From: a virus | Lineage: Duplodnaviria > Heunggongvirae > Uroviricota > Caudoviricetes | DNA length: 48,428 nucleotides | IMG/VR virus record: IMGVR_UViG_3300045988_145381 | Direction: 5' to 3' (one strand) | Shown here: in pieces, positions 1 to 48,428 of the stretch | Numbering within the stretch: the stretch's first letter is position 1 | Layout of the letters: the number at the start of each line of letters is the position of its first letter | Notes under the pieces: model-generated | Seen by the model: the letters and a program-made list of their open reading frames with translations, nothing else | Databases searched by the model: none | What the model was told of the DNA's origin: nothing | Translations under genes and position numbers: made by a program

Positions 1-128
1 GTTGACACCCTCGCATAACCATATTGCATACTTTCTAAACCGCGATTGTTGCTAAAAGCGGGAAAAAATATCGTTCAGACGACACAGAGGCAATTCGCAA
101 AAACCTCGGTTTACAGGAAACGGTAAAT
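1..128. repeat. 128-bp sequence identical to 48301..48428 (circular contig overlap)
   Basis: First 128 nt of the window recur exactly at the 3' end; the boundary coincides with the invertase crossover site. Confidence 0.9.
103..127. promoter_or_regulatory. DNA-invertase crossover site, left inverted repeat (gix/cix-like)
   Basis: acctcggtttacaggaaacggtaaa is the perfect reverse complement of 3155..3179; it lies about 75 bp upstream of the invertase start (wrap-around). Confidence 0.75.
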
Positions 129-1064
129 CAGGCTTCTGGCGCATTACAGAAAAACCAGAACGGCGCAGATATTCCGGGAAAAGATACCTTCACCAAAAAT
201 ATTGGGGCCTGCCGCGCATATAGCGCATGGCTGGATATTGGTGGCGATAGTCAGGTCTGGACAACCGCGCAATTTATTTCGTGGCTGGAGAGTCAGGGAG
301 CATTTAACCATCCTTACTGGATGTGCAAAGGCTCATGGGCTTATGCAAATAATAAGGTCATTACAGATACAGGTTGCGGAAATATTTGTCTTGCAGGTGC
401 TGTGGTGGAAGTTATTGGCACTCGCGGCGCAATGACCATACGCGTTACCACGCCGAGCACGTCCAGCGGTGGAGGAATTACTAACGCTCAATTCACTTAT
501 ATTAATCATGGTGATGCTTACGCTCCTGGCTGGCGACGAGACTACAACACGAAAAATCAACAACCTGCATTTGCTTTAGGGCAAACAGGAAGCACTGTCG
601 GAAATGATAAAGCTGTTGGCTGGAACTGGAATAGCGGGGTCTATAACGCAAATATTGGTGGCGCATCGACATTAATCCTCCACTTCAATATGAATACGGG
701 GAGCTGCCCTGCTGCACAGTTCCGCGTGAATTACAGAAATGGCGGAATCTTTTATCGTTCAGCGCGTGATGGTTATGGCTTTGAAGCTGACTGGTCAGAG
801 TTTTACACCACAACCCGCAAACCCTCTGCGGGAGATGTTGGTGCATATACGCAGGCAGAATGTAACTCAAGGTTTATTACAGGTATTCGCCTTGGCGGTC
901 TGTCATCTGTTCAGACATGGAATGGTCCCGGCTGGTCTGACAGGTCAGGTTATGTCGTTACGGGTTCAGTTAACGGAAACCGTGATGAATTAATTGATAC
1001 AACTCAGGCAAGGCCAATTCAGTATTGCATTAATGGAACGTGGTATAACGCGGGGAGTATTTAA
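104..1064 (+). CDS. silent alternative tail-fibre C-terminal cassette (no own start; fused to the constant part after inversion)
   Basis: Frame is open from 39 to 1064 without an upstream ATG; encodes ...LGLQETVN..., matching residues 454-461 of the expressed 792-aa fibre; C-terminal INGTWYN motif shared with the expressed fibre. Confidence 0.65.
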
Positions 1065-1066
1065 TT

Positions 1067-1600
1067 ATGATGCACTTAAAAAATATTACTGCTGGCAACC
1101 CTAAAACAAAAGAGCAATACCAGCTAACGAAACAATTTAACATCAAATGGCTTTACTCTGAGGACGGAAAAAACTGGTATGAGGAACAAAAGAATTTCCA
1201 GCCAGACACTTTGAAAATGGTCTATGACCATAACGGCGTTATTATTTGTATTGAAAAGGATGTTTCAGCAATTAATCCGGAAGGCGCAAGCGTCGTTGAA
1301 TTACCTGATATTACAGCAAATCGCCGTGCTGACATTTCGGGTAAATGGATGTTCAAAGATGGCGTAGTGGTAAAACGAACTTATACCGAGGAAGAGCAGA
1401 GGCAACAGGCGGAAAATGAAAAGCAAAGCCTGCTACAGCTCGTCAGGGATAAAACCCAGCTATGGGACTCACAGCTACGGCTGGGCATCATTTCCGACGA
1501 GAATAAACAAAAATTAACCGAGTGGATGCTCTATGCGCAGAAAGTCGAATCTACAGACACCTCCAGCCTGCCAGTAACATTTCCCGAACAACCTGAATGA
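1067..1600 (+). CDS. tail fibre assembly chaperone (Tfa), partner of the silent cassette
   Basis: 177-aa ORF directly after the alternative cassette; clear paralog of the 175-aa ORF at 1629..2156 (MMHLKNI.AGN.KT.EQY.LTK...). Confidence 0.7.
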
Positions 1601-1603
1601 GAC

Positions 1604-1630
1604 AAGGCCCGATAGCGGGCCTTAATTTTT
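1604..1630. terminator. hairpin terminator between convergent tfa genes
   Basis: aaggccc/gggcctt stem followed by a T-run, between the two convergent tfa ORFs. Confidence 0.5.
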
Positions 1631-2156
1631 ATTCAGGCTTTTGTGGCCATTCAGGATTTGCCGTATCCACACGGCTGACCAGAACACTGTAGCGTTCCCA
1701 TGACTCCAGTCGTGCGCGCTCCTCATCCGTCGCCATATTCAGCCTGACAGCGCGTTCCAGTGGCTGAATAACGCTTTCTGCTTCGGAAAGTAACGCGGCC
1801 TTTTGTGATTCGGCCTGTTGTTGCTGTTCGTCAGCCGTATAAATCCGTTTAACCACAGCTCCGTCCTTAAACATCCACTTCCCTGAATCATCGGCACGAC
1901 GATTGGCTGTTATATCGGGAACCTCAACGACGCTAAAGCCTTCAGGGTTAAGCGTAGAGGCATCCTTGGTGATAGCGACAATAATATTATTTTCATCGTA
2001 AACAATCTTTATTGTGTCTGGCTGAAAGTTTTTCACTTCCTCATACCAGTTTTTTCCGTCCTCAGAGTAAAGCCAGATAACTCCGTGTTTCTTTGTTAAT
2101 TCGTACTGCTCAAGTGTTTTAGCGTTACCCGCTTTAATGTTCTTTAAGTGCATCAT
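1629..2156 (-). CDS. tail fibre assembly chaperone (Tfa), expressed orientation
   Basis: 175-aa ORF immediately downstream of the tail fibre gene; paralog of 1067..1600. Confidence 0.75.
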
Positions 2157-2157
2157 A

Positions 2158-4536
2158 TTAAACGCTCGCTACATTATACCAGGTGCCATTTATATACTTT
2201 TGAACGGGTCTGTAATAAACGCCCGCTATATTATCGGCAGAGTTGGACCCTGTATCCTGAACATTAATACCAGACAATACATGACCTGACGGGCACTGGA
2301 AATTCCATGTTTGCCAGTTGTTCACTCCATAATATTGCTGTGAACCAAGTCGAACATCTTTCACATATCTGGAATCAAAATTGCCATAGTTGCCGGGAAT
2401 AACTTGCGCACCGCAAAGCCAGTTTCCGTTATTATCCATGTACGCCTGACCATCGGTGCCATTGGCTGTCCTTGAATTATTAATCATGTAGATGCCAAAT
2501 TGCTTGTTCCCCAGTCCACCTATCATGAACTTGCGGTCGGCGTGATTCTGGCGAAGCAACGCCTGAGCGCTATCAGTGTTAACTATATTTTTCCCAAAGA
2601 TAGCGTTGTTATCGCGCATCTGAATCCACATACCATTACTGCTGTTAATAGCAAAACGGTCTGAAAGTGTCTCCCCTGAAACATTAAGACCACGCCCCAT
2701 CGAAACAGCGCCAGTAGCGTTATTAATCCATAATGGCCTTAATCCGTTATAAGTCCCCATGTTGTCACCGGAGTTTGTCAACATGAAGTATGTATTTGAA
2801 CCATCATTACGAATAAAGAATCCGTAATTACCATAAGCAATACGTAGGCCGTTTGCTGATTTTGATATGACTTCGCCATTTACAATGGCATTGACAAGAA
2901 CATACAAAGCATCCCATTTAAGATTCATCAGGTCTTTTGTTGTGGTACTTTGTTTGCTTCTCCATTTGAAATATTCATTGCCGTTGTCGCCTGTCTCAAA
3001 CCACATGTATGAATCAGTGTCACCATCGGCATCATTTTTAAATCCAATCTTCGCCCAGTCAGTATTTCGAATCCAGGCAAGGATTGAGTCATTTTCAAAA
3101 GTAAGCCCGCCGGACAAGGTATCGCCTGTCTTTTGAACGGCGTTACCAGCCTTGTTTACCGTTTCCTGTAAACCGAGGTATTCGATAACGGCAGCAACGG
3201 TCGATTTCGCAAGAATATCCCGCCCGACTTTTGTCAGGGTTGCCAGGCTGGCGACATCATTCCCCGTAAAATACGGAAACTTGTCTGCCGCAGTAGCAAG
3301 CCCGGCCAGCGCCGTCAGGGTGGCATCTTTCGGTTGCTTACCCGCAAGCGCGTTAGTCATGGTGGTCGCAAAATTCGGGTCGTTTCCCAGAGCCGCCGCT
3401 AACTCGTTCAGCGTATTCAGTGCGTCAGGTGACGAGTCCACGAGGGCAGCGATCGCAGCCATAACGAAAGCCGTGCTTGCGATTTGGGTATTATTCGTTC
3501 CCTGTCGCGCAGTTGGCGTTGTTGGCGTTCCGGTCAACGCAGGACTGTTTAAGGGCGCTTTCTTGTTCGTTTCATCCATTACCGCCTTGACCGCTTTCGA
3601 TGTCGCGGCCAGTGTTTCAGACGTGCTGTTGGTGGAACTACTGAGCTGAGTTATTCCCCTTACAGTCAGTGAAGCTACAGGCACATTTGTTATCTGCTCC
3701 CACGAATGCGTGTGATTGGACGGAGCCTTTCCGGCCGCAAGATCATACGCTGCCTTAACAGCCTTTGGTGTTGCTGCTAGCGTTTCAGACGTGCTGTTGG
3801 TGGCACTACTGAGCTGAACAATCCCTTTTCGCGCTGTGGTAGCGTCCTGTGCGGTGTATTTGCCATTAGCCAGGTCATATGCTGCCTTAACAGCCTTAGG
3901 CGTCGCAGCAAGCGTTTCAGACGAGCTATTGGTGGCGCTGCTAAGTTGAACAAAGCCTTTTGAGGTTAAAGTTGCATCAGGATGATTACGTGATTGTTCA
4001 TGTTTCACAATGGCTTGCTTAAGCCGCTTTGCTGAAACAGCAAGGGAATCATCTGTACCGTCATCAATTTCTTGTTCATTGGCAAATCTTGCAACCCCAA
4101 CAACAGTTTCGGTTGCGGGAGGATTAATAAACTCAATATCACCAAATGTAATATTTTTAGTATCAAGAGTCTTGATTGCTATGTCACTTGATATTAAAGC
4201 AATAGTAGATGATGCTTTATTTATTATTGCTTGTTCTTGCGAGTATACAGCAAACAACGTTCCCTTATTTGTATACAATCCTATTGTATGGACAACATAC
4301 TCATCTTTACTATCATCCTTCGCCGTTACATGAATTGTATCAGGGGAAACAACTTTGCCACCTATTGTGGTAAGTCGTTTTATTTCGTTTGTTATATTTG
4401 TTTGTGAAGTTGACGTGACATAATATCTACTACCTAAACCAACAGAAACAATCTCAACTTTATTTGTTCCTGTTTTGTTGGCATTAACCAGCTCCTGACG
4501 CCCGGCGTCAGTCATCGTAAATAATAATTTACTCAC
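2158..4536 (-). CDS. tail fibre protein (constant N-terminal part plus currently expressed variable C-terminal part)
   Basis: 792-aa ORF with three tandem ~33-aa repeats (G[IF][27 protein letters not shown]) typical of phage tail-fibre repeats; crossover site inside the ORF; followed by tfa. Confidence 0.85.
3155..3179. promoter_or_regulatory. DNA-invertase crossover site, right inverted repeat (inside tail fibre ORF)
   Basis: Perfect reverse complement of 103..127; falls at codons ~453-461 of the fibre. Confidence 0.75.
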
Positions 4537-4566: not shown

Positions 4567-5148
4567 TTAGCACTCGCCAATTAATCGTACATAAGACACA
4601 GGCTGACAAGCACCAACAATACCGACACCACCAGAAACATTGGCTGCTTGCGAAAATGTAAATAATGTTCTTGCCGACTTTGCGCTCTTGATACTTCTTA
4701 ACGTATCTTCCAACATCTCTTTCGAAGGAACGGCACCATCAAAAGAGTTAATCGAAGCAACAATTGAGGCTGTATATGGTTCGCCAGGTGGTGATGTTTC
4801 AAACCATTCTGTTATGTTTACCTCTCCACCCAAGCTATTTACTACATCTTCAACCGCTGCCCTTGTACCCTTTATTCGCTTTGTTCGTATTATTGATTTA
4901 AAAACAGAACGCTTTAACGATACAGGCCAACTATCCCTCCATGTATCAGCATTCCATTGCCAAGCTAAATGATCGAGAACAACTGAGTCCAGGTTATCAA
5001 CAACGCTATATATTTCTGTCTTATATATTAAATTGTTAATTGCTTGTAGTTCATCATCAATAGCTTTCGACATAGCTATCACGTTGGGATCTCTAGCTAA
5101 GTTAGGAGGTAAAACATCCAACAAGCTAACATTAAAGATATCAGCCAT
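4567..5148 (-). CDS. tail/baseplate protein (P2 gpI / Mu gp48-like)
   Basis: 193-aa ORF between the baseplate J-like gene and the tail fibre, the conserved position in P2/Mu-type tail modules. Confidence 0.5.
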   Translation of the reverse strand: MADIFNVSLLDVLPPNLARDPNVIAMSKAIDDELQAINNLIYKTEIYSVVDNLDSVVLDHLAWQWNADTWRDSWPVSLKRSVFKSIIRTKRIKGTRAAVEDVVNSLGGEVNITEWFETSPPGEPYTASIVASINSFDGAVPSKEMLEDTLRSIKSAKSARTLFTFSQAANVSGGVGIVGACQPVSYVRLIGEC

Positions 5149-6265
5149 CCTCTAACCCCGCATACTGGCAATTTATATTTCTCTCTCTGGCGACCTGCGT
5201 CTCTCCAACTACAGTAAATACAGGACTTGATATTTCTAATCTTTTAGCCCCGGCATTTTTTAAACGTTGAATAATTTCATCTGGATTTATATCTCTTCCC
5301 ATAACCGAACGTTGCCATTGTTTATACTCATCAAGAGCTTTCTCAACCTCACTTTGAATTAACGTTGTTCTGTTTTTGTCCGATGAGTTAATCCAGTATT
5401 TAATTATTATATCGTATTCAATGCTCTCTGGTTTCTTAACAAGAACTTTATCTGTGAATGGTCGAATATTAGTTGCAGAGAGAACGCTATTTATCTGCTC
5501 TAATAGTTCATCAGAAGGTATATCCCCGTTCTCTAACAAAGAACGGATTTCTACAGTTCCGGGCGATGGTGTATATACATTCACATCTTTTATATTCTGA
5601 TTGGCTGTTCTTGTCCAATATTTATAAGAATCCTCCGGCCCTGCTGTAGACAGTTTTTCCGGCGACAGTTTTATTCTTTCAGCATAATTATCATCTGACT
5701 CTGTATCAGCACCAGAATTAGATGTTGTTAGATTCCTTACGCTGGAAACATACGGCAACGGAGTCACCAACTCGTTTATTTGCCCAGGTAAAAATCCATT
5801 CCCCGATAAGCCAGGTATAACAGCATATCCTGAGACTGTACCAACTGTTTTCCCAGCTGGTATTTCCAACAAAACATCTGTTTGGAAAATAACACTATTT
5901 CCAGTTGAAATTTGAGTGCCAGCAGGTATTGTATATATCCCCGATAATTTTGTTGACAGATTAAACTCAAATGTAGTCAAGGCAGATTGAGCTTCCAGCC
6001 TAGGCGTATCCGTCAGATAGCCTATATGGTCGAGATATTCACCCCCACCATATGTAAGAAGGTTTTGTTTTGCAGAAAAATCGATAGCTTTTCTTTGCTG
6101 TATAATAATCTCACACAATGACAAGATGAATAATCTACGTGGATCAGCAGGTGCTAATGTTTCACCTGTTATACTCTCAAAAGCCCTGATTGAACGAGTT
6201 GTTATATCAGTCGGGTTAGAATCTGCGAAAGTAATATCTGGCAAACCACCGCGCGGCAACGTCAT
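5141..6265 (-). CDS. baseplate protein J-like
   Basis: 374-aa ORF, translationally coupled to its neighbours, in the J position of a P2/Mu-type baseplate cluster. Confidence 0.6.
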   Translation of the reverse strand: MTLPRGGLPDITFADSNPTDITTRSIRAFESITGETLAPADPRRLFILSLCEIIIQQRKAIDFSAKQNLLTYGGGEYLDHIGYLTDTPRLEAQSALTTFEFNLSTKLSGIYTIPAGTQISTGNSVIFQTDVLLEIPAGKTVGTVSGYAVIPGLSGNGFLPGQINELVTPLPYVSSVRNLTTSNSGADTESDDNYAERIKLSPEKLSTAGPEDSYKYWTRTANQNIKDVNVYTPSPGTVEIRSLLENGDIPSDELLEQINSVLSATNIRPFTDKVLVKKPESIEYDIIIKYWINSSDKNRTTLIQSEVEKALDEYKQWQRSVMGRDINPDEIIQRLKNAGAKRLEISSPVFTVVGETQVARERNINCQYAGLEDG

Positions 6266-6582
6266 TCTCTAACTCCTATCACAAGTTTTGGCCTAATAAA
6301 ACCATCAGAAACGTCCGTTCTTTCAAAAGTAACAGAATGGATAATCGCTCTAGGCTCAAACTCACTAATTTTTTGAATTATTTCTCGTGTTGCTGTAGCA
6401 ATAAAAATTGGGCTAGGGCTATCAACAAGACTTGAATTAACTCCTAATTTTCTGGCATATGGTACAGTGCCAATCTGAGTATTAATAATAGTAGAGACAT
6501 TTTGCAAAACTTCTTCTACAACTGTTTTGGGCGACCAATCAATCGAGTAAGAAGGTGATGATATGGTAAACGTATTATTCAT
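6262..6582 (-). CDS. baseplate protein (P2 gpW / T4 gp25-like)
   Basis: 106-aa ORF; size and position upstream of J. Confidence 0.5.
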   Translation of the reverse strand: MNNTFTISSPSYSIDWSPKTVVEEVLQNVSTIINTQIGTVPYARKLGVNSSLVDSPSPIFIATATREIIQKISEFEPRAIIHSVTFERTDVSDGFIRPKLVIGVRE

Positions 6583-7046
6583 AATAATTTACCTAACGCA
6601 CTTCTAGTTTTTGACTCTATATTGCCAGCAATATCAACTAATGCTTCTTTCAGAGAGGTCTGTCCGACTTCCTGTAATTTAATGCCGACGATAATCACTC
6701 GTGGATTCCCAGTTGGACCGAAATAAGTCCATGATTCCTCTATATCTGTAATTATAAAATTACCAAAATACTGAATACCAATTACAACAGGATTTACTTC
6801 CTGAATTGATTGCATTGTCCTAAGTAATGAAAGCGCAGCCAATGGAACAATGCCAAGTGTTGTATCCAACCGCATATTAAAACTAACTTCATCCAGATCT
6901 GGACCTATATCCTCCAGAACAGGTTTAAGCCCAATAACATCATGGCGCGCTACACGACGCTTTGACGTCCTTTTAAAATTGTTGAACGTATTCACCACTA
7001 TTGATGAGGCAACAAAAGGCATTGTACCAAGCATACCCACAATCAT
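6579..7046 (-). CDS. putative baseplate-associated protein
   Basis: 155-aa ORF coupled between the V-like and W-like genes; no recognisable motif. Confidence 0.3.
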   Translation of the reverse strand: MIVGMLGTMPFVASSIVVNTFNNFKRTSKRRVARHDVIGLKPVLEDIGPDLDEVSFNMRLDTTLGIVPLAALSLLRTMQSIQEVNPVVIGIQYFGNFIITDIEESWTYFGPTGNPRVIIVGIKLQEVGQTSLKEALVDIAGNIESKTRSALGKLL

Positions 7047-7662
7047 GCCTGAGCCTCCGTTGTCGGAGCGTATTCCCCCTGAGCCGTGTGATGGTGGCCT
7101 TTAGATTTAATCCCATCAACATCTATATCACCACCAACAACCTTAACATCCCCAGAAATTGTAGCTGCAACACCTCCAGCAGAAGATCCTTTCATTCCAC
7201 CTTTGAAGGTTAGTAATCCTTCAACTGTAGCATTTCCGGTAATGATGGTTTCTGGAGCATCAATAGTTACGGTTCCTGTAGCCTTAACGGTTACATCTCC
7301 GACAGCATCAACAAGGAGTAAATTAGATTCTCTGTCTACCTCAATACGAGTTCCGTTATTAAATCTAATGACGCGTTTATTAACAGTATTAGATGGCGGC
7401 TTCTGTGTTTCATCATAAAAACTACCAAGAATAAACCTTGTTGCGGCCCTGCGGGATGAAAGATACACAAAACTTGCTCACCAATATCTGGCATCCAGTA
7501 ATCAGCATTCTTATCCGTATTTTTCACAATAACTGATAACTTTGCCGAAGTGACGTTATCCTGATCATCGAAAGTAACTCTTGCTGTAACATCGCCATCA
7601 TCAATATCAGAAACAACGCCAACTCTTATAGTCTGACGTAATAATGTTTCTAAATCATTCAT
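7043..7662 (-). pseudogene. baseplate assembly protein V-like gene split by a frameshift
   Basis: N-terminal part (ORF 7336..7662, ...IGEQVLCIF...) and C-terminal part (ORF 7043..7468, ...VKATGTVTID...VVGGDIDVDG...) are in different frames; the break maps to a ccc run at 7447..7449. Confidence 0.55.
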
Positions 7663-7664
7663 AA

Positions 7665-8666
7665 TTAATACCCATTAATTACTCTTCGGACATCAATCGA
7701 GGTGGTATAACCACTAGCCCCAATTGAATGCACAGCTTTCGATATAAGATATTTTCCAGAAAATGAACCGAATCCGTCCAGATTTATAGTTACACCAGCT
7801 ACCAATCTGGTGTCTCCAACCAATACTAAAGATCCTGTATTTTGATATCTATTTTTAAGCCGCAAAGCAGCCTTTGCCTTACGTTTTGCTTCATCTAAAT
7901 TAGCTACCAGTTTTCTTATCTTAAGATTCGACCCTTCTTCTACGGATGGATCTACCCAAGTATACGAAAGCGACTTTCTTTTTTTAGGTACGCGATATTT
8001 GCACGTGCAACTTTTATACAAATCTGTAGATTGTGTGCTAAAGCTATATCTGATTATCTCATCAATACCTAACGTAAGCGTAGCGATAGGATCTTTTTGC
8101 TCAAACATCTCTTGAGCAAATATTATTAATTGGCTATCAGTGACCTTTAACGACAACCCTTCATCCTGGCATAGTCGATGGAGAAATTTTAAATCGCTTT
8201 CCTCCATTTGATCTTCACGCGCATAATATGGATTACTATCACCATCAATAAGAAACAACAGTTCAAGGTTAGCTAATTTAGCTATAGAGGTTGCTATATC
8301 TTTAAGAGTTGTTTTTTCCCATGCATTACTTTTTAAATCACGTCTAATGCCTGATGAAACAGGAACAGAAACAGCAGTCACCTCAACAACAGAAGGTGGT
8401 CCAGAGCAAGTTATGCCATCTACCTGGAATTTCCCGCACTCAAGGACGATTTGATTTATAGGCTTAAAGCTCAAATCAATAAAATCACCCTTTTTAGGTG
8501 TCCAGTCTCCAGACCATTTCCCATCATCATTTTTTAATATAATAGAAATATCATCGACCTGACCATCTTCATTATCTGTATAAGACATTGACAAAACATC
8601 AGGTGACATATGAGCGGTAATATTTACATTCTGATATATAACATCAAAAAGCGTTTTACGTAACAC
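7665..8666 (-). CDS. tail protein D-like (late control D family)
   Basis: 333-aa ORF directly downstream of the X-like gene and tape measure, the conserved gpD position. Confidence 0.6.
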   Translation of the reverse strand: MLRKTLFDVIYQNVNITAHMSPDVLSMSYTDNEDGQVDDISIILKNDDGKWSGDWTPKKGDFIDLSFKPINQIVLECGKFQVDGITCSGPPSVVEVTAVSVPVSSGIRRDLKSNAWEKTTLKDIATSIAKLANLELLFLIDGDSNPYYAREDQMEESDLKFLHRLCQDEGLSLKVTDSQLIIFAQEMFEQKDPIATLTLGIDEIIRYSFSTQSTDLYKSCTCKYRVPKKRKSLSYTWVDPSVEEGSNLKIRKLVANLDEAKRKAKAALRLKNRYQNTGSLVLVGDTRLVAGVTINLDGFGSFSGKYLISKAVHSIGASGYTTSIDVRRVINGY

Positions 8667-8874
8667 TATTGCGTCTCCACGGAGGCAAATTGTTTACTGA
8701 TATTGGCATAACCGGAGCATCAGGAACTTTAAGAATAATTCCCGCAGAAAAAAGCACCGTAAAGCGGTGCTCAGTATTAGCATCAATAAGAAGATAAGAC
8801 AGGTACTCATTACCATACAACTTTAACGCGATACTATCCCATGAGTCCCCTTGAACCGTTCTATAATCATCCAA
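8656..8874 (-). CDS. tail protein X-like
   Basis: 72-aa ORF overlapping the end of the tape measure gene, the typical gpX position and size. Confidence 0.5.
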   Translation of the reverse strand: MDDYRTVQGDSWDSIALKLYGNEYLSYLLIDANTEHRFTVLFSAGIILKVPDAPVMPISVNNLPPWRRNSVT

Positions 8875-37370: not shown

Positions 37371-37489
37371 ACCACGATATGTGGTATTAAAACCACATAT
37401 CGTGAGTTTTTCAATGGGCGAAACAAAAAATAACCTTCTATTTGTGGTCCACCTCTCGTCTTACCATGTGAAAACCACTAAATGTGGTA
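37371..37489. promoter_or_regulatory. immunity operator region with three ACCAC-N5-GTG(G/A)(T/G) sites
   Basis: accacgatatgtggt (37371..37385), accacatatcgtgag (37392..37406), accactaaatgtggt (37475..37489) in the divergent intergenic region; tataaat -10-like element at 37493..37499. Confidence 0.6.
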
Positions 37490-37525
37490 ATGTATAAATA
37501 ACCCACCATTCACGATTGATGAGAC

Positions 37526-38188: not shown

Positions 38189-38280
38189 TACACAGCACGG
38201 CGAAAGCCGTGCATTTCTACGCTCAAAAAAACCACGCTTTGTGGTTTTGACAACATGTGAAAGTATAAAAGAGGCTACGC

Positions 38281-38655: not shown

Positions 38656-38683
38656 CTGCAAGCGGGCTAACGCCCGCTTATAT

Positions 38684-38790
38684 GATTATAGATTTATATA
38701 ATTATATAAAACGCTTTTCATCCGCCAAAAAGTTGGTTATGCTTACCTCGTTCTATAAATATAGATTTATAGAATTATATAACCAAACAC
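38684..38790. repeat. AT-rich palindromic repeats upstream of parF-like gene (candidate centromere/operator)
   Basis: Perfect 16-bp palindrome ttatataattatataa at 38694..38709 and related tatagatttatagaattatataa at 38764..38786; a third copy at 39458..39490. Confidence 0.5.
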
Positions 38791-39459: not shown

Positions 39460-39502
39460 TATATAATTATAGTTTTATAGATTTATATAAGAGGGGATAC
39501 AC

Positions 39503-39751
39503 ATGGCCGCACCATCAAAACCACCAAAGAAGAACAGCAAAGGCGTACCGCCATCGATCGAACAACCGCAGGTTTTCGACCCGACTGAAACGCCAACCAG
39601 AACCAAATCAGGTGGGGCACAAATGGCGTTTAACGTCGACCCTGAATTTAAACGCGAGTACAAAACGTTCGCCAGCTCAATGGATATGTCATTGAAAGAA
39701 GTGCTGACAAAATCTTTTGAGTTACTCAAGGCTCAATACAACCAGAAGTAA
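39503..39751 (+). CDS. ParG-like small ribbon-helix-helix partition protein (putative)
   Basis: 82-aa ORF immediately after the ParA-like gene; flexible basic N-terminus and C-terminal strand-helix-helix-like segment. Confidence 0.5.
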   Translation: MAAPSKPPKKNSKGVPPSIEQPQVFDPTETPTRTKSGGAQMAFNVDPEFKREYKTFASSMDMSLKEVLTKSFELLKAQYNQK

Positions 39752-39967: not shown

Positions 39968-39990
39968 AACCATAAAAAAGGCCCCCGAAG
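39968..39990 (-). terminator. rho-independent terminator (minus-strand orientation)
   Basis: ggcccccgaaggggcc hairpin with a T-run on the minus strand. Confidence 0.5.
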
Positions 39991-40001
39991 GGGCCTAATC
40001 G

Positions 40002-40124
40002 CTACTTGCTGCTAATGTTTATCGTCACATTTAGAGCGTTATCAGTAATCTTCCAACCCTCCCCATGTGGCGTAAACAAAGCTCCAGTAACAACGATAAA
40101 AATACACATACAGTATTTTTTCAT
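40002..40124 (-). CDS. small hydrophobic peptide (40 aa, MKKYCMCIFIVVTGALFTPHGEGW...)
   Basis: Read directly from sequence; Shine-Dalgarno-like aaggg upstream; terminator 39968..39990 immediately downstream. Confidence 0.25.
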   Translation of the reverse strand: MKKYCMCIFIVVTGALFTPHGEGWKITDNALNVTINISSK

Positions 40125-40520
40125 TGTATGGCCCTTACAGGCCGTTTCACGGCATCCCCACCGACGAAAACAACGCGAGAGCAAGCACGGCTGCTTGTGC
40201 TTGCATGTACGGCAACGGAGAATCCTCCCCTAAAGTCGGTGCCCGGGTGCGAATCGGCGGGAAGGTCCACAGGTATTTTACGATTATTTTAAGATTAGTA
40301 ATAGGAAAGAAATTAAACGAAAAAACTCGTTTATTTTCACAAAATCAGTAACCTACCCACAATCTGTGAGTTTGCAGGCACAACAAGAACCACAATTTTT
40401 TGAAGCATAATAGTGGACTATTATTACCTTTTGGGTAAAATTAACTTGCTGCTTGTGCTTGCGTGGTTGTTTATACAACAACGTAATGCTGAAAGGACCG
40501 CGAATCCGATCAGCACGAAA

Positions 40521-40549
40521 GAACCGTCCTCAATAGGGCGGTTTTTTTG
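40521..40549 (+). terminator. intrinsic terminator-like hairpin in the ant leader region
   Basis: Stem-loop followed by 7 T. Confidence 0.45.
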
Positions 40550-40690
40550 TTTCTGCCTACCAATAAACCCACGCTATGTGGTTGTCTCTGTTAAAATCCC
40601 GCCGTATTGACATGAATGCGCCATTGGTGGACACTTTCCGAGCCGTAGCAAAATCTACGGTCGGGATTGGCGTCCCGATTGCACAATGGC

Positions 40691-40716
40691 GCATACCGCG
40701 TTAGCGGTTTTTTTAT
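40691..40716 (+). terminator. intrinsic terminator-like hairpin in the ant leader region
   Basis: accgc-gtta-gcggt stem-loop followed by 7 T. Confidence 0.45.
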
Positions 40717-40876
40717 GCGTAAAGCACTGCTACACCCAAATTATGGTGGGGCGTGCGGGGGCGGAGAAATCCGCGCCGGGTTTGTCATTGTGCCGGTTAC
40801 GCCAACCCTGTACGTCTCACCACCATATTGATTGGCGTCATTGGTGGTGATAGTTCCTTTAATCGGAGATATCACA

Positions 40877-41068
40877 ATGACAAACCTACCCCATGACTAT
40901 TACGTCAACCTCGTAAAGATCCTTCTCAAGAAAGCCTCATACGCCGATAAATTCCGCCTGGCTGAAATCATCGAGCGCGAAGCTATGCGCATCGCCAGCA
41001 ACGATAACGCTGTTTCTGACGCAAAAATCTCCCTCGTAACCAAAGTAGTTATGGGAGGTGCAAAATGA
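40877..41068 (+). CDS. small protein overlapping the ant start (Icd-like position)
   Basis: 63-aa ORF (MTNLPHDYYVNL...) within ORF 40832..41068; ATGA overlap with the ant-like gene. Confidence 0.35.
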   Translation: MTNLPHDYYVNLVKILLKKASYADKFRLAEIIEREAMRIASNDNAVSDAKISLVTKVVMGGAK

Positions 41069-42246
41069 AAACGCTTCCGACCGTTAACACCCTACAGCCT
41101 ATCCTGCATAACCAGCTCCCCGTTATCACTACTGAACTACTGGCGCAATTGTATGGAACCGAGCGCCAACGTCTGACAAACAATTTCAATAGAAACAAGG
41201 AACGTTTTATAGAAGGTAAACACTTTTTTAGGATAGAAGGTAAAGAGTTACGAGAGTTGAAGAACAAAAACTCTTTAAGAGTTCCTGTGAGAGTAGTTAA
41301 CGAACCATCTTTAAGAGGGTTACAAATTCCCCCGAAAGTTCGCTCCCTCATCCTCTGGACAGAACGCGGGGCTGCACGTCACGCTAAAATGCTTGAAACT
41401 AACCAAGCGTGGGATGTGTTCGAACGGCTGGAAGACTGCTATTTCAACCAGAACGCGCAAACGGCCGCGACCGTAACCGTCTCACCAAACAATGCTCGTG
41501 AGGTTGTCGATACGCTCAACGCCAAACCGATGTTTTACATTAAAGTGTGCAACAACGAGCCACTCACAACCTCAGCCGATGTTGCCCAGGCATTCAGCAC
41601 CACAAACAATTCCATCGTTATGGCCATCGATGCGTTACGCATTCCTCGCACAGCTGCGGCGCGTCATTTCTTTAAAGAGCAACGACCGTTGGAAGGAAGC
41701 GACCGCGAAATAACAATCTATCGCATGACAAAAGACGGATTTACCTTGCTCATGGAAAGTATCGACGGTCCAGGCGTGAAGGATATCAAGCTGGCCTACA
41801 TTGAAGCCTTTAACGCTATCAGCAGCGTGTTAAAAACACAGTACGAGCGCGATCTGGCTAAACGACTGTACCAGGAAAAAACGATTATCCGCGCGGCAAC
41901 AGAGCATAATCGGCTATTAACGGAACCGAACTACAGGAAGGAACTAATCAAGGAGTTTGACAAGGCAACAGGGAAAACCAAAGCGGCGCTAAGTCTGCCA
42001 GCAATGACTCAGGAAAATGTGATATCAGCCTTACTTCTTGATCTGCTCAGAAACGCCAGAGCACTTATCAGCTTTGACGAAAACCTGAATCCTCAGCTCA
42101 AGCTACTACCACCGACAGGCAAAGTAGTCGACCAGGCTGATCACAACAGCATACTCAGCGTACTGGATGCAAACCTGCCAGCCAGGACACTACAGGATCT
42201 GATAAAAACATGTGCTGATAAGCTGGCACAGAAAAGCAGACCATAA
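41065..42246 (+). CDS. ant: antirepressor (ORF6N/KilA-N-like plus Rha/Ant-like domains)
   Basis: 393-aa ORF; N-terminal ...ITTELLAQLYGTERQRLTNNFNRNKERFIEGKHFFRIEGKELREL... and central Rha/Ant-like region; hairpin terminator at 42252..42271. Confidence 0.65.
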   Translation: MKTLPTVNTLQPILHNQLPVITTELLAQLYGTERQRLTNNFNRNKERFIEGKHFFRIEGKELRELKNKNSLRVPVRVVNEPSLRGLQIPPKVRSLILWTERGAARHAKMLETNQAWDVFERLEDCYFNQNAQTAATVTVSPNNAREVVDTLNAKPMFYIKVCNNEPLTTSADVAQAFSTTNNSIVMAIDALRIPRTAAARHFFKEQRPLEGSDREITIYRMTKDGFTLLMESIDGPGVKDIKLAYIEAFNAISSVLKTQYERDLAKRLYQEKTIIRAATEHNRLLTEPNYRKELIKEFDKATGKTKAALSLPAMTQENVISALLLDLLRNARALISFDENLNPQLKLLPPTGKVVDQADHNSILSVLDANLPARTLQDLIKTCADKLAQKSRP

Positions 42247-43055: not shown

Positions 43056-43328
43056 TCATTTGATCCCTTGTTCCAATTCTGCCGACACTTTAACCTTTTC
43101 CCATACAAGGGTTTGCAGCCTTAACAGAATCGCATCTTTATCAAGGTGTGAAAGATCCTTAACCATATCGTCAAACGACAGAACGCGAATGGCCATCTCA
43201 ATGACCCTCGGCGGCTCCCCCTTCTCATATCGCTTATATGTAGCCAACGATATCCCAAACTCTTCGGCTGCTCGCTCCTGCGTCCAGTTCATCCCACGAC
43301 GCCATAATTTCAATTCGTAACCCGTCAT
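43056..43328 (-). CDS. XRE-family HTH transcriptional regulator
   Basis: 90-aa ORF with HTH (...WTQERAAEEFGISLATYKRYEKG...). Confidence 0.6.
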   Translation of the reverse strand: MTGYELKLWRRGMNWTQERAAEEFGISLATYKRYEKGEPPRVIEMAIRVLSFDDMVKDLSHLDKDAILLRLQTLVWEKVKVSAELEQGIK

Positions 43329-43429
43329 TACATCCTCTACCTTTCCCTAGATATTCAATAAATTAGACATAGCCACTCACGACAAAATAAGATGTATTAA
43401 CAATCCAATCTTTAGGCTTTAGGTAAAAA

Positions 43430-43855
43430 ATGAGTTCATCTGCTTTTGTCACCGTGGTCACTGGTGTAAGTGTTTTTGTTCTAGGCCAACTCATCGTCAA
43501 AGGAGCTATTGAGCCTTACATTTCATTCAGGGAACAACTAGGGAAAATATCCAATCTGTTATTATGTAACCAAGCAAAAATAGTGAATCCTGGCTCGAAC
43601 TTAAAGCCAGAAATCATTCATGATCTAAAAGATTCCGCAGCACAGTTAATGGCGAAATATTCCACTTTACCTTTCTATATCAAAAAGTTACATATCGGCT
43701 TTCGTCTTGTTCCATCAGCCACCGAGATTCTTGGGGCAGCTCAAAATTTGAACTATATAGCGTCAATACATGAAGGTAAGACTGGGGAGAATCCATCTAA
43801 GCATCTCGAAGAGATTGGCCATATGCTCAAAATACCAACTACCTATTCAAGCTAA
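43430..43855 (+). CDS. membrane-anchored hypothetical protein
   Basis: 141-aa ORF with N-terminal TM helix (SAFVTVVTGVSVFVLGQLIV); locally AT-rich coding sequence; divergent from the HTH regulator. Confidence 0.45.
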   Translation: MSSSAFVTVVTGVSVFVLGQLIVKGAIEPYISFREQLGKISNLLLCNQAKIVNPGSNLKPEIIHDLKDSAAQLMAKYSTLPFYIKKLHIGFRLVPSATEILGAAQNLNYIASIHEGKTGENPSKHLEEIGHMLKIPTTYSS

Positions 43856-44502: not shown

Positions 44503-44802
44503 TCAGATGTTAAACGCTATTCGTTTTCCTGTGGGAAGCTCAACATCCAGGCTTAATTTGCCTCCCATAGCTTCAACGTAACGCTTTAATGTCGCCAGCT
44601 TTAAATCATTTCCGCGCTGCTCCAGCTTTGTTACTGCTGGCTGGCTTATACCCATCGCCTCAGCAACCTGTTTTTGTGATAACTGGAGTTCTTCACGCAT
44701 CATCTGCAAGCCGACCTCAAGAATCATCTCATCTGCCATTTCTTTAATTCGCGCCTGGCTTTCCGGTGAACGGCTGGCAATCGCCTCATCTAATGTTCTC
44801 AT
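44503..44802 (-). CDS. higA: HigA-like HTH antitoxin
   Basis: 99-aa ORF with XRE-type HTH (...LSQKQVAEAMGISQPAVTKLEQ...), overlapping the stop of the upstream toxin-like gene. Confidence 0.65.
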   Translation of the reverse strand: MRTLDEAIASRSPESQARIKEMADEMILEVGLQMMREELQLSQKQVAEAMGISQPAVTKLEQRGNDLKLATLKRYVEAMGGKLSLDVELPTGKRIAFNI

Positions 44803-45155
44803 TACTTGCTCTCCAGTGTGTTCAGATGTGCTGCAAACTCATCCTCAGCTATACGCACCAGTTTTTCATAAAACCGCTTATCGTTACTTTTGTCTCCTGC
44901 ACAAAGAACGATGGCCCGGCGAATCGGATCGAACGCATAAAAGGCTCTTATCGGACGGCCAGAAAACTGAACGCGAAGCTCTTTCATATTTTTGTACCGA
45001 GAACCTTTTACGGTATCGGCATATGGCCTGGGTAACTCAGGTCCGTAAACCTGTAGCTTTTTCAAATCAGCCAAAACCTTTTCCTGAAGAGCGTCTTCTT
45101 GCTCATTTAGCCAGTCGTCAAATCGCTGGCTAAAAAGTACCGTCCACATGCTCAA
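44802..45155 (-). CDS. higB: HigB/RelE-family toxin-like protein
   Basis: 117-aa ORF upstream of and coupled to the HTH antitoxin (toxin-first order); two TATAAC-N6-GTTATA-type palindromes at 45159..45204. Confidence 0.6.
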   Translation of the reverse strand: MSMWTVLFSQRFDDWLNEQEDALQEKVLADLKKLQVYGPELPRPYADTVKGSRYKNMKELRVQFSGRPIRAFYAFDPIRRAIVLCAGDKSNDKRFYEKLVRIAEDEFAAHLNTLESK

Positions 45156-45393
45156 TCCTATAACCTGTAGTTTATATCACTAACTATATAACCTGTGAGT
45201 TATAATTTCAAGAAAAACGGGGCTATTTAACATAATGGACGTTATCGGCACCACCGGATCACCGTTCATTGTCGGATCTAAAAAATCCGCTCAAAAGATC
45301 ATGTTTTCCTGGGCGTTTTCCACCGTTTTTTATGTTGCTTATTTGTTAATGAAATCTCGTTTTCAGTTTCGCCTCATTTTCGACGCGAAAGCC

Positions 45394-45980: not shown

Positions 45981-46379
45981 TTATTATATCTACGATGGTA
46001 GGAAATCTTTTCCTATGTGGCAATAGAAATTTACTACATTGCGTATAAGACAAGTTTTCTATGTCTAATAGGAAATGATGTTTCTTACGTTTTATCGCGT
46101 TCTGATGGCTACTGTGTGCGTATTTATCGACGTTTATTGATAAGGCTCGCCCCTTCCTCCTGCAAAGCCCGGCCGTAGGCCTTATTTCGGCCTTATATAA
46201 ATTGATTTTGTATAGTTCGAAACGCGCCGTTTCGAAAAGGATGATCAGGCTGCTCCATGCCTCCGGCAAGTGCCGGAGGAGGTATATTTGAGCGTAGCGA
46301 CTCGAACCGGCGCGAGCTTTAGCTCGCTGCAAGGGCGAACATATTCACAGGCAAAGCCTGCGTAAGTTAAATAAAGAAA

Positions 46380-46611
46380 GTTTTAATAAAAGAAAGTGAT
46401 TTTGCATTTATTTGTTTAGTGCATCTATTATAAAAAACCATTTGCATATACATATCAAAACTGTGGATAACTTTATTAGCCGATGCCTGTAAAGGCGATA
46501 TTTTTGCTGTGTTCAGGTTTAGAGAAAATTAATTTAGATTGTTTTTTGAACAGATATTTTATTGCGACGTAGATAATCCTCCGGTAAAACCGGATTCATC
46601 ATTCAGGTGGG
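46380..46611. promoter_or_regulatory. candidate replication origin (AT-rich region with DnaA box) downstream of repA
   Basis: tgtggataa (reverse complement of TTATCCACA) at 46462..46470 within an AT-rich stretch about 140 bp beyond the repA stop. Confidence 0.45.
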
Positions 46612-47451
46612 TTAATGTTGGAGTGATTTCCAGGTCTTTCTTAGCCTGTTATAACGCTGCTCAACGAGGGAGCGTAAATATGCAAGGTCAGCACCAGGAT
46701 ACATGCCATCAGCAAATTCCTGGCTAACCTCTCTAGTGATTTGATGGCGAAGTTCGGCCTCTCCCTTTTCCTGAACAAGACGCGCAGCTCTCTCCGCTGC
46801 TTTCTGTTTTGCCTTTATCTCTCTGGCCGTCTTCCTCTGACGCCATACATTCTCCATCTGCTCCTGAATAACAATACGCTTATAATCAGCCTCCGTTATC
46901 GCTTTTTTAAGCCGTTCGCTATTCTTCGCATTGAAGTAATTAAGTTTCTGGCTAACCGCACGTCTCCATGCTTGTTCAGTAATACCAACTGTTTCCAGCA
47001 GTTGATCACGAATCTCGATTTTCGCTGGCCAATACTGTTTATTCACCCGATCCCAGCGACGTTCATAATCAATAAAACCTAACTCTTTCAGTTGCGACAA
47101 CGCCCTTGTACAGCGCGTTATAGACTTGTTCCCAGCTTCGGATACGGTAGACAGGCCGCAAAAATCAGCCAACGCCTCAGCACTGGCCAGAACCCGCTTA
47201 GAAATGATGTTTACATGGTGCAAAATCGCAGCAATCACAGCATTAATCGCCCGACGACGATGCTCGTTTATCCGGCGTTTCCGCTCTGACGGTTGATTAA
47301 CGTAGAACGCAACCTCACACGTAAGATCACGACCATTAATGCGCTGTAAAGCATCAGATAACACCAGCGGCAGCTTGTGCGTATGGTGCTTTGGAGGCTG
47401 GAACTCCGGCGACAAATTACAAACGTAAGCTGAACGTAGAGACGGCATTGG
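46612..47451 (-). CDS. repA: IncFII-type replication initiator RepA
   Basis: ORF 46612..47604 trimmed to MDRPMPSLRS...; strong resemblance to R100/R1 RepA1 as recalled (...KSITRCTRALSQLKELGFIDYE...). Confidence 0.75.
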   Translation of the reverse strand, partial: PMPSLRSAYVCNLSPEFQPPKHHTHKLPLVLSDALQRINGRDLTCEVAFYVNQPSERKRRINEHRRRAINAVIAAILHHVNIISKRVLASAEALADFCGLSTVSEAGNKSITRCTRALSQLKELGFIDYERRWDRVNKQYWPAKIEIRDQLLETVGITEQAWRRAVSQKLNYFNAKNSERLKKAITEADYKRIVIQEQMENVWRQRKTAREIKAKQKAAERAARLVQEKGEAELRHQITREVSQEFADGMYPGADLAYLRSLVEQRYNRLRKTWKSLQH

Positions 47452-47494
47452 TCTATCCATATGTTCGCTCTTGCGTCCACGGAAAACCAACGTA

Positions 47495-47576
47495 TAATGG
47501 GAGTTGTCGAGGCGCCCATGGTTAGTTGTTGGTTTTCCTTTCCGTGGATGTCGCAAGAAGCCCGCAGATTTATCTG
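47495..47576 (+). ncRNA. candidate antisense RNA to the repA leader (CopA-like)
   Basis: Plus-strand TTGCGT-16bp-TATAAT promoter at 47461..47488, long imperfect stem, terminator hairpin gcccgcagatttatctgcgggc plus ttttt at 47548..47576. Confidence 0.45.
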
Positions 47577-47775
47577 CGGGCTTTTTGTTTCCATATCTGG
47601 TCACTTTTCAACCAGACACCCACAATCATAACCACGTTACGTGGTTTTAAGAGAACTCTACCACAACACTTTCGGTCATGCACGAAGTCTCTCACTGATC
47701 GAACGATAATCCACCAGTAAAAGGATCTAAATTGGATCTCGTTTTGCGAGCATCATACTACTGGCCTAACTCCAG

Positions 47776-48330
47776 TCAATGATTCCCAGCCGGAAACCTG
47801 CGGTAAAGCGTGGATAAGGTAACATCGAAGATAATCGCTATCCGCTTACGTGAAACACCATTCGCAATAAGCCTTCCGATCTGTTCCCATTGCTCTGGTG
47901 CCAATTTTGAGCGGCGTCCTCCTATCCTGCCGTTAGCCCTTGCCACCGCCAATCCTGCACGCGTTCTTTCAATCATATTTTCCCGCTCCATCTCTGCGAC
48001 TGCACTCAGCATCGTGTAGGCAAAGCGGCCAATTGAAGTGCTAATTTTTATCCCTTCCGTAATCGAAATAAACTCAATGTTGTTTGATAAAAAATAGTTT
48101 AGTAAATCAACAAGATGAATCAGAGAACGCCCCATTCGGTCCAGCTTCCAGACAATAACCGTATCGCCCGGCCGTAACACCTTCAGTAGCTTATCAAGTC
48201 CTGGTCGTTTTGATTTAGCACCGGATATTTTATCTTCAAAAATCCGGTCACATCCTGAACTCCTGAGCGCCTCCAATTGTAATTCCAAATTCTGGTCAAA
48301 AGTTGACACCCTCGCATAACCATATTGCAT
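47776..48330 (-). CDS. serine DNA invertase (Hin/Gin/Cin/Pin family)
   Basis: 184-aa ORF MQYGYARVSTFDQNLELQLEAL...DRMGRS... with catalytic Ser motif and C-terminal HTH; start wraps to window position 30; crossover site upstream. Confidence 0.9.
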   Translation of the reverse strand: MQYGYARVSTFDQNLELQLEALRSSGCDRIFEDKISGAKSKRPGLDKLLKVLRPGDTVIVWKLDRMGRSLIHLVDLLNYFLSNNIEFISITEGIKISTSIGRFAYTMLSAVAEMERENMIERTRAGLAVARANGRIGGRRSKLAPEQWEQIGRLIANGVSRKRIAIIFDVTLSTLYRRFPAGNH

Positions 48331-48428
48331 ACTTTCTAAACCGCGATTGTTGCTAAAAGCGGGAAAAAATATCGTTCAGACGACACAGAGGCAATTCGCA
48401 AAAACCTCGGTTTACAGGAAACGGTAAA

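Follow-up and report, generated by a model that had tools for sequence, protein, structure and literature searches.

We analyzed a 48,428-nt stretch of viral DNA (Caudoviricetes; IMG/VR record IMGVR_UViG_3300045988_145381), referred to below as the window. On one molecule, it carries a RepA, a ParA, a Xer recombination site, and two toxin-antitoxin systems together with virion, packaging, and lysis genes, and thus has the phage-plasmid architecture that a sequence-only reading of this DNA had proposed. Very probably, the window represents a full copy of a widespread phage-plasmid of Escherichia, a temperate myovirus that is maintained, as a prophage, in the form of a circular plasmid at low copy number. 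The features concerned with maintenance of the molecule and with its control are located as follows (window positions; plus is the strand as deposited):

1–127: terminal overlap, an exact prefix/suffix identity with 48302–48428 that ends exactly at the left gix-like site
37352–37525: immunity switch region with the palindrome AACCAC-N5-GTGGT at 37370–37386 and 37473–37489 and a degenerate copy at 37391–37406
37526–38188, plus: CI-like repressor of 220 amino acids (aa), with an N-terminal HTH_3 domain and a C-terminal half matching CI-like PHROGs
38230–39751, plus: partition operon, comprising a putative operator (38230–38246), orf124 (38281–38655), parA (38806–39459), and the gene of an 82-aa partner (39503–39751)
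38678–38790 and 39459–39498: AT-rich, 8-bp-phased repeats flanking parA, found by repeat search
39974–40552: timPR-type type I toxin-antitoxin, with the timP/ryfA mRNA at 39974–40270 (minus) and a TimR-like small RNA (sRNA) at about 40425–40552 (plus)
40567–42246, plus: P1 immI-like antirepressor module, beginning with a putative operator (40567–40583) and a −35 element TTGACA at about 40608
40642–40714 and 40739–40827, plus: IsrK (Rfam, 67 bits) and C4 antisense RNA (RF01695, 72.3 bits; gathering score, 45)
40877–41068 and 41065–42246, plus: orf63 and the gene of a 393-aa antirepressor-type protein with ORF6N and Rha domains (Pfam ORF6N and Phage_pRha)
43056–43855: divergent pair encoding a 90-aa helix-turn-helix (HTH) protein (43056–43328, minus) and a 141-aa protein without assigned function (43430–43855, plus)
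44503–45155, minus: HigBA-type type II toxin-antitoxin (Pfam Gp49, 81 bits; HTH_3/HTH_37 antitoxin)
45225–45252, minus: dif/psi-like XerC-XerD site GGTGCCGATAA-CGTCCA-TTATGTTAAAT, upstream of higBA, with a flank of ~150 bp on the XerC side
46360–46611, minus: candidate replication origin downstream of repA, with the DnaA box TTATCCACA at 46462–46470 and an AT-rich stretch
46612–47460, minus: repA, 282 aa from the ATG at 47460 (the mechanical open reading frame, ORF, reaches a GTG at 47604; Pfam IncFII_repA, 151 bits)
47501–47592, plus: predicted countertranscript of about 85 to 90 nt, with TATAAT at 47493–47498, a 5′ tail, stem-loop I, and a terminator hairpin
47630–47779, minus: repA control region, with a promoter-like TTGACT-16-TATGAT at 47779–47752 and the putative operator palindrome AACCACGTAACGTGGT at 47631–47646

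The ends of the window had been read as identical over 128 bp and as indicating a circle of ~48.3 kb. The circle stands, while the identity extends over exactly 127 bp; removal of one copy leaves 48,301 bp of unique sequence with 44.5% G+C. The closed circular relatives L003 and L001 are contiguous across the 48301/1 junction. Closest to the window are the ~48-kb E. coli plasmids NZ_AP025749.1, NZ_CP023368.1 (p48), and NZ_CP009073.1, at 97 to 99.9% nucleotide identity; the last is the 48,488-bp plasmid of E. coli ATCC 25922, which is a member of the same lineage. NZ_AP025749.1 aligns with positions 1–24000 as a single piece at 99.9% identity, and its invertase and repA coordinates match those of the window on both sides of position 1. 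CP099184.1 is collinear with the window across 45.5 of 48.3 kb. Judging by the finished circular plasmids, which cross the junction in the same gene order, the terminal overlap is no artefact.

When a 10-kb query from the structural region was compared with complete E. coli genomes, matches were found in 72 of 5,426 (about 1.3%). They occupied 87 places, 86 on plasmids and one on a chromosome, and among the 70 of 72 records listed, the plasmids carrying the region were all shorter than 100 kb and mostly 46 to 52 kb. A 700-bp query spanning the Xer site and higB matched the same genome set at 116 places, every one on a plasmid. The extrachromosomal maintenance that had been proposed is thus borne out, in relatives of the window. 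NZ_OZ282456.1, considered as a possibly mislabelled replicon, is a plasmid record. Profile searches with Pfam and PHROGs, covering the ORFs of at least 150 aa outside the structural block and most smaller ones, found no tyrosine or large serine recombinase, and the PGAP annotations of four near-identical relatives contain no integrase. The sole recombinase found is a 184-aa serine invertase, in agreement with the earlier observation. Overall, neither a joining to chromosomal DNA at a fixed site nor an integrase was seen in the relatives and the profile searches.

Genomes of the same type, with the same RepA, Par, and HigBA genes, are held in the records of three Yersinia phages, vB_YpM_39, vB_YpM_41, and vB_YpM_44 (OR545053–55; host, Y. 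pestis EV76-CN), which are about 97% identical to the window over the maintenance region. Because three GenBank phage records hold this genome type, the lineage appears to make particles. No paper was found behind the vB_YpM records. The capsid is at least 99% identical in five phage records, those listed being the three Yersinia phages and vB_EcoM-613R2, and the next best capsid match among phage records is less than 47% identical. The 26.6-kb E. coli “phage” vB_EcoM-613R2 (ON470591.1), whose capsid is 100% identical, is a fragment of this lineage; its authors held that ParB alone is no indication of a plasmid prophage stage.

The ~48-kb E. coli plasmids and the Yersinia phages share with the window the gene order, RepA, ParA, HigBA, the Xer site, the putative operators, and the head and tail genes. 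They differ from it in short variable blocks, at roughly 31.5–33.0 kb, 41.2–41.3 kb, and the tail-fibre tips. Two frameshifts in virion genes, considered below, are private to the window, and its invertible segment is in the L003 orientation.

The RepA had been described as IncFII-type. In addition to its Pfam match, it passes the NCBIfam model NF040977 (RepA_IncFII_LM) with 233 bits against a cutoff of 70, but it fails the strict incFII_RepA equivalog TIGR03474 (81.9 bits; cutoff, 446.9) and shares only about 32% identity, over 45% of the length, with annotated incFII RepA proteins. By these profile scores, it is a RepA of the IncFII/IncL-M superfamily and not a classical IncFII one, so the earlier label holds at the superfamily level only. 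Among the 5,000 best-scoring records of a plasmid search, 4 had a RepA at 60 to 90% identity; the nearest out-group RepA among the matches listed is 36% identical and is carried by an ordinary conjugative KPC plasmid, not a phage-plasmid. A RepA scan of GTDB species representatives found nothing, and no MOB-suite replicon type is given for the two PLSDB relatives examined. One perfect DnaA box, as had been noted, lies 142 bp downstream of repA and adjoins an AT-rich stretch.

The strand antisense to the repA leader contains a long hairpin followed by a strong intrinsic terminator. We compared this region of the window with that of two IMG/VR relatives, L010 and L011, whose RepA proteins are 85 and 80% identical to that of the window. 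The antisense-strand TATAAT block is invariant across the three, whereas the RepA N terminus diverges, and compensatory changes are found in the terminator stem (one) and in the base of the long stem (one). The predicted countertranscripts, 81 to 90 nt in length, fold alike in all three into a 5′ tail, a stem-loop I of variable sequence, and the terminator. These features argue for the candidate antisense RNA that had been pointed out in the repA leader. No match to Rfam CopA (RF00042) was obtained either at the gathering score or at E ≤ 10. No copB-like ORF is present upstream of repA, where the invertase gene adjoins the repA promoter region, and the frame of the upstream ATG (leader peptide) relative to repA differs between the window and L010/L011. 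A second repA promoter overlapping the operator (TATGAT at 47630–47625) was considered and rejected, as its −35 element is poor and it is not conserved in L010 and L011.

The partition genes had been read as a ParA/ParG-like pair of the ParF/ParG kind. By Pfam, the ParA (about 217 aa) belongs to the small ATPases of the ParA type, with matches to CbiA, MipZ, and related P-loop models. Its match to ParF in the PDB (4dzz) is weak (E = 3e-4) and confined to residues 10–123, half of its length, and it scores 78.6 bits against the cutoff of 180 of NCBIfam ParA_partition. For the 82-aa partner, no Pfam, PDB, or NCBIfam match was found, and a Foldseek search with its model returned nothing significant. 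The ParA half of the earlier assignment stands; the resemblance to ParF is weak, and ParG, for a protein without a sequence or fold match, is a tentative label. A single-sequence AlphaFold2 (AF2) model of the partner has a disordered tail and two confident helices, which is compatible with a ribbon-helix-helix protein without being diagnostic of one.

The Xer site deviates from the search pattern by two mismatches, has a 6-bp spacer, and was matched 0 times in 100 shuffles. Its arms and position are conserved in L010, and the site is identical in 9 of the 14 loci compared. Together with the XerC-side flank of ~150 bp, the core forms a module of ~200 bp that is shared at 83 to 88% with unrelated 24- to 35-kb E. 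coli plasmids; cer/psi modules are shared among plasmids in a like manner. The site may fill the dimer-resolution role that P1 gets from Cre-lox.

Two addiction modules accompany these genes. The HigBA noted earlier was found again as a HigB-type toxin gene (Gp49; RelE/ParE superfamily) upstream of its HTH antitoxin gene, which is the HigBA arrangement; the toxin stop and antitoxin start overlap by 1 nt, and PGAP labels the toxin gene in relatives as a RelE/ParE family toxin. The second module lies between the partition genes and the antirepressor module. In the published timPR layout, an mRNA of the ryfA family contains a short hydrophobic ORF at about +145, and a complementary sRNA with a terminator lies upstream on the opposite strand (PMC7667032); the layout in the window agrees with it on each count. 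The ryfA RNA is detected by Rfam RF00126 at 143.5 bits (gathering score, 80). The timP ORF, at 40002–40124 (+147), encodes 40 aa with a hydrophobic N terminus. The TimR-like sRNA, encoded upstream of timP on the other strand, ends with a strong hairpin and a U-run (intrinsic terminator) and is complementary to the timP 5′ untranslated region over 15 nt exactly (40448–40462 versus 40190–40204), or at 17 of 18 positions over 40448–40465 versus 40190–40207. The timPR loci described in that paper are chromosomal, and copies on plasmids or in prophages go unmentioned in it (PMC7667032).

Of the CI/Cro pair that had been assigned to the immunity switch, the CI-like HTH repressor was recovered. No Cro was identified at the canonical position heading the divergent operon, whose first gene encodes a 164-aa protein without an assigned function (Pfam, PHROGs). 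Pfam finds no Peptidase_S24 in the repressor, and a single-sequence AF2 model of its C-terminal half is unusable (predicted local distance difference test score of about 25). The search for LexA boxes gave a single chance-level CTGT-N8-ACAG inside a structural region and no link to SOS.

The palindrome AACCAC-N5-GTGGT gives 11 strand matches in the window, against 0.42 expected, at five loci. Two to three copies occupy the intergenic region that separates the repressor gene from the early operon. One copy follows the repressor gene and precedes orf124-parA, another precedes the promoter of isrK-C4-ant, and one is in the leader of repA. The arrangement in the switch region is the same in the divergent relative L010, which also has the palindrome at the par junction. 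Upstream of repA, it is present in both L010 and L011, with half-sites kept and spacers differing. The replicon of the out-group KPC plasmid, used as a negative control, lacks it.

In the antirepressor module, where the Ant noted earlier is represented by the ORF6N and Rha antirepressor-type protein (Pfam), the C4 loop contains a perfect 14-nt complement to the orf63 AUG region (40873–40886), and the C4-orf63 duplex has an energy of −49.6 compared with a shuffle mean of −33.3. The stop codon of orf63 and the start codon of ant overlap within ATGA; orf63 itself matches only a PHROG of unknown function. The ORF6N-Rha gene is intact in the window (393 aa) and encodes about 380 aa in a Yersinia phage. 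Truncated or split versions, accompanied by an ORF6N pseudogene, are found in L001 (23328–23954), L003 (5403–6119), and L004 (5203–6345); such breakage in plasmid relatives hints at recurrent loss of inducibility.

The following mechanism can be proposed. RepA would act at the DnaA-box, AT-rich origin just downstream of its gene, and its dosage would be controlled by the antisense countertranscript of ~85 to 90 nt in the repA leader. Copies would be segregated by the type Ib-like pair of small ParA and 82-aa partner, with the repeats upstream of parA as the centromere. Dimers would be resolved by host XerC/D at the cer/psi-like site, which would account for the lack of a resolvase or integrase encoded by the element itself. 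HigBA (type II) and timPR (type I) would penalize loss of the element. The CI-like repressor would bind the AACCAC-N5-GTGGT operators at the divergent early promoter region and, probably, also those preceding the par and ant operons and the one in the repA leader. Induction would proceed through the ORF6N-Rha antirepressor, held down by pairing of C4 with the translationally coupled orf63 start region, as in P1 immI. Since no separate lytic replicon is recognizable, de-repressed repA would be the likeliest route to lytic replication, as in N15. The lambda-type terminase and head genes would then package the DNA, and the P2/Mu-like contractile tail with its Gin/Cin-switched fibre would set the host range. 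Tentatively, and with rather less than even confidence, we propose that one immunity repressor governs the plasmid functions in a lineage unnamed in published surveys, the operator in the repA leader replacing CopB and one replicon serving both maintenance and lytic replication.

The remaining features of the window, which include the virion genes and the early operon, are these:

100–3182: invertible tail-fibre segment of ~3 kb between gix-like inverted repeat arms (100–151 and 3131–3182); inverted repeat I3 contains TTCCTGTAAACCGAGG
2158–4536, minus: 792-aa tail fibre in the currently expressed orientation (Pfam Phage_fiber_2, Gp34_trimer)
4567–14396, minus: contractile tail/baseplate module (gpI, gpJ, gpW-like, tail protein, gpV, gpD hub, tape measure, chaperone, FII tube, and sheath)
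7043–7662, minus: baseplate assembly protein V (gpV) gene, frameshifted by a 1-nt deletion, T4 to T3, at ~7435 (7433–7436)
14397–14882, minus: virion structural protein gene (phrog_2581), frameshifted by a 1-nt insertion (G) at ~14857, codon ~9
14880–22375, minus: head/packaging module (Pfam, PHROGs)
15617–16660, 16681–17064, and 17074–18162, minus: gpE capsid, decoration protein, and ClpP-type protease
18131–19705, 19702–19941, 19953–21809, and 21815–22375, minus: lambda-family portal, adaptor, gpA large terminase, and small terminase
22366–29007, minus: late/accessory block (Pfam, PADLOC MTase_II)
28420–29007, minus: MT-A70 methyltransferase (Pfam)
29316–29391, minus: tRNA with a CAT anticodon (Met by ARAGORN, Ile by PGAP in L004), between the lysis cassette and the MT-A70 gene
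29685–31167, minus: lysis cassette, with two holins (30772–31167 and 30489–30821), a glycoside hydrolase family 108 (GH108) endolysin (29960–30502), and a small ORF (29685–29963)
31554–37351, minus: early operon, divergent from the repressor gene, mostly of unassigned function (Pfam, PHROGs)
35711–36115, 35382–35714, and 33762–34829, minus: early operon genes of the Ref nuclease, a DUF1064 protein, and a DUF3560 protein
47776–48330, minus: Gin/Cin/Hin-type serine DNA invertase, 184 aa (Pfam Resolvase, 151 bits, and HTH_7)

The virion gene content agrees with what had been read from the sequence. The head genes are lambda-like (gpA terminase, portal, ClpP-type protease, decoration protein, and gpE capsid), and the tail is contractile, with sheath, FII tube, tape measure, gpD hub, and baseplate J. 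The tail assignments rest on Pfam (Baseplate_J, Phage_GPD, PhageMin_Tail, and Phage_tube) and PHROG matches (tail sheath at 323 bits, baseplate wedge), and the PGAP names in relatives agree with them. Two overlapping ORFs between the tube and tape-measure genes (11814–12095 and 11665–11847) look like the usual tail-chaperone programmed frameshift pair. Lysis genes, too, are present as stated earlier, the two holins and the GH108 endolysin matching Phage_holin_8, Phage_holin_3_7, and Glyco_hydro_108 with PG_binding_3. Adjoining the terminase genes, three proteins with ParB/Srx-N domains are encoded at 22366–22956, 25623–26246, and 24250–25629, the last fused to a methyltransferase; one of the three matches the PADLOC type II methyltransferase model (MTase_II). 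No recognizable initiator or helicase was found in the early operon by Pfam and PHROGs.

The invertible segment holds alternative fibre C termini and assembly chaperones (321–1064 and 1067–1600 on the plus strand, 1629–2156 on the minus strand, and the 3′ part of the 2158–4536 gene on the minus strand). It is 87 to 95% identical to tail-fibre regions of ~90-kb E. coli and Salmonella plasmids, of which the E. coli ones are, we presume, P1-like, and the invertase gene has 89.8% DNA identity to pin of phage SJ46. The segment lies in one orientation in the window and L003 and in the opposite one in L004 and L002, in genomes that are otherwise 97 to 100% identical. Because near-identical relatives hold it in opposite orientations, the Gin/Cin-type switch is, by this comparison, active. 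The end of the 127-bp overlap exactly at the left gix-like crossover site (1–127 against 100–151) suggests that the assembly graph branched there since both orientations of the segment were present in the sample. In one relative, L009 (IMGVR_UViG_3300029841_000009), a 68.5-kb contig 20 kb longer than the element, the gene of a 934-aa tail fibre and one chaperone gene directly adjoin repA, without the invertase or the invertible segment.

The virion gene set had been called complete, and this holds for its content. Its intactness does not hold, since frameshifts confined to this copy affect the gpV and structural protein genes. The 206-aa gpV is replaced in the window by ORFs of 108 and 141 aa, and the tblastn match is split over two frames; the deletion is seen in a DNA alignment with L001 and L003, and the gene is intact in L004. 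For the structural protein, tblastn aligns only residues 10–161 of the query, and the gene is intact in L001, L003, and L004. The other L001 coding sequences (CDSs) with a counterpart in the window are intact in it. If the frameshifts are real, this copy can persist as a plasmid but probably makes no infectious particles.

Several points weigh against the reading of the window as a complete phage-plasmid under the control of its repressor. One of the 87 structural-region matches is chromosomal; it covers roughly 53 to 98% of the 10-kb query and comes without the Xer/higB region. Because the Xer/higB query found no chromosomal place, the maintenance region is missing from this match, which on that comparison is a partial element rather than a whole integrated copy. 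The plasmid state of the window copy is read from its relatives, and the description of the Yersinia phages as isolated virions rests on the type of the GenBank records and their host field. The two frameshifts could be sequencing errors, one of them lying in a T4 run. As regards the mechanism, the countertranscript, the AT-rich parA-flanking repeats as a centromere, the Xer dependence of resolution, and the binding of the repressor to the operators are predictions from sequence, and the 90-aa HTH protein encoded at 43056–43328 is an alternative candidate for the palindrome-binding protein. The 355-aa DUF3560 protein, for which no PDB or NCBIfam match was found, has a C-terminal half matching a PHROG labelled “primase” (E = 2e-37), so that a lytic replication function encoded in the early operon is possible.

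Alternative explanations differ widely in how well they fit these data. It is scarcely credible that the circle is an assembly artefact in which a repeated k-mer joined the ends of a phage genome that was linear or terminally redundant, or of a plasmid-prophage chimaera. The length of the overlap does correspond to a k-mer size common among assemblers (127), and its end coincides with a recombination site, at which assembly graphs branch, but dozens of independently finished circular plasmids, long-read assemblies included, share the gene order across the junction, as do several separate ATCC 25922 assemblies of 48,403 to 48,488 bp. An integrative element captured in its excised circular form, or one able to integrate at chromosomal dif through its XerC/D site, is very unlikely as well. 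Integrative mobile elements exploiting Xer (IMEX), such as CTXphi, integrate at chromosomal dif via XerC/D, and the dif-like site of the window has a perfect XerD arm and a 6-bp spacer; the one chromosomal match to structural genes among complete E. coli genomes could be taken in the same sense. Against this, the Xer/higB region is chromosomal at 0 of 116 places, and the other 86 structural-region places are on plasmid-annotated replicons, with the listed records all under 100 kb and mostly of 46 to 52 kb. Moreover, the element has a full replication, partition, and addiction set, and its Xer core lies within a ~200-bp module common to small plasmids, as for cer/psi resolution sites.

A much stronger contender, which we place just short of an even chance, is that the window copy is a decayed phage-plasmid on its way to becoming a plain plasmid: it would replicate, partition, and addict its host but, with the gpV spike and a structural gene broken, yield no infectious virions. 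Two private 1-nt indels in virion genes stand out in a background otherwise ~99.9% identical to intact relatives, and the 127-bp overlap suggests a short-read k-mer assembly, in which indel errors would be rare. Conversion of P1-like phage-plasmids into defective plasmids is documented (PMC10879196), and relatives of the window carry other lesions, such as insertion sequences in the tail fibre or terminase genes, a split ant, and truncation to 31- to 39-kb versions. On the other hand, the gpV indel falls within the T4 homopolymer, the second lesion is at codon ~9, where an in-frame TTG at 14846 could allow re-initiation, and all other compared CDSs, as well as the antirepressor, are intact in the window.

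Near-identical elements have been deposited many times, and the element is already known both as a sequence and as a kind. The remaining value lies in its regulatory wiring, which appears to place replication and partition under the phage repressor, and in its presence in a standard reference strain. Genes can travel with phage-plasmids by the viral as well as the plasmid route, and in genome surveys these elements are often wrongly classed as cryptic plasmids. The frequency of about 1.3% of complete E. coli genomes, reference strain ATCC 25922 included, suggests that this lineage is common. Its compact maintenance kit, which combines predicted host-Xer resolution, type I and type II addiction, and an IncFII-superfamily replicon with its own countertranscript, is unusual. 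The predictions made here are easily testable because the element resides in the ATCC 25922 quality-control strain.

The lineage seems to be under-described in the literature searched. No paper naming or describing the group came up under accessions, phage names, or keywords, and a 2025 survey names only P1, D6, SSU5, and N15 as phage-plasmid groups of Enterobacteriaceae. The pSLy3 phage-plasmid group was considered as a match and rejected, as pSLy3 belongs to the SSU5 supergroup of ~100 kb (PMC7969092). The lineage may be an Enterobacteriaceae phage-plasmid group left without a name in published surveys, whose groups are P1, D6, SSU5, and N15.

The individual modules resemble known plasmid systems. 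The RepA family, the predicted leader countertranscript, and the candidate DnaA-box origin downstream of repA are shared with the IncFII plasmids R1 and R100 and with IncL/M, IncB, and IncI-alpha replicons. Unlike R1 and R100, the window has no CopA-family RNA, no copB, and no conserved leader-peptide frame, and carries a putative phage-type operator in the repA leader instead. The partition operon is like the type Ib ParF/ParG system of TP228 in having a small Walker ATPase followed by a protein of ~80 aa, with repeats upstream of the ATPase gene; as in ParG, the partner is modelled with a flexible N-terminal tail and a helix-turn-helix pair. It differs from the TP228 system in that its ParA resembles ParF weakly and its partner has no sequence or fold match to ParG.

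Among phage-plasmids, the P1 prophage is a circular plasmid, and P1 has the immI region, the Cin switch, dispersed operators, Cre-lox recombination, an iteron RepA, and a type Ia ParAB system. Like P1, the element is a myovirus apparently kept as a circular low-copy plasmid. As in P1, a Ref nuclease is encoded, an addiction module is present, a Cin/Gin-type enzyme inverts a tail-fibre segment, and putative repressor operators are dispersed around the genome; the series of C4 antisense RNA, small ORF, and antirepressor follows the immI logic. Unlike P1, it is half the size and has a lambda-type gpA terminase, portal, and gpE capsid in place of the P1 head, an IncFII/L-M-superfamily RepA with a predicted countertranscript rather than an iteron RepA, a small ParA rather than type Ia ParAB, a host Xer site instead of Cre-lox, and no recognizable separate lytic replicon. 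N15, a siphovirus, is linear and has a protelomerase and a RepA of the primase-helicase kind. From these the element differs as a circular myovirus with an IncFII-superfamily RepA, but the logic we propose for it would be that of N15, with one replicon, under the immunity repressor and induced through an antirepressor, serving for both plasmid and lytic replication.

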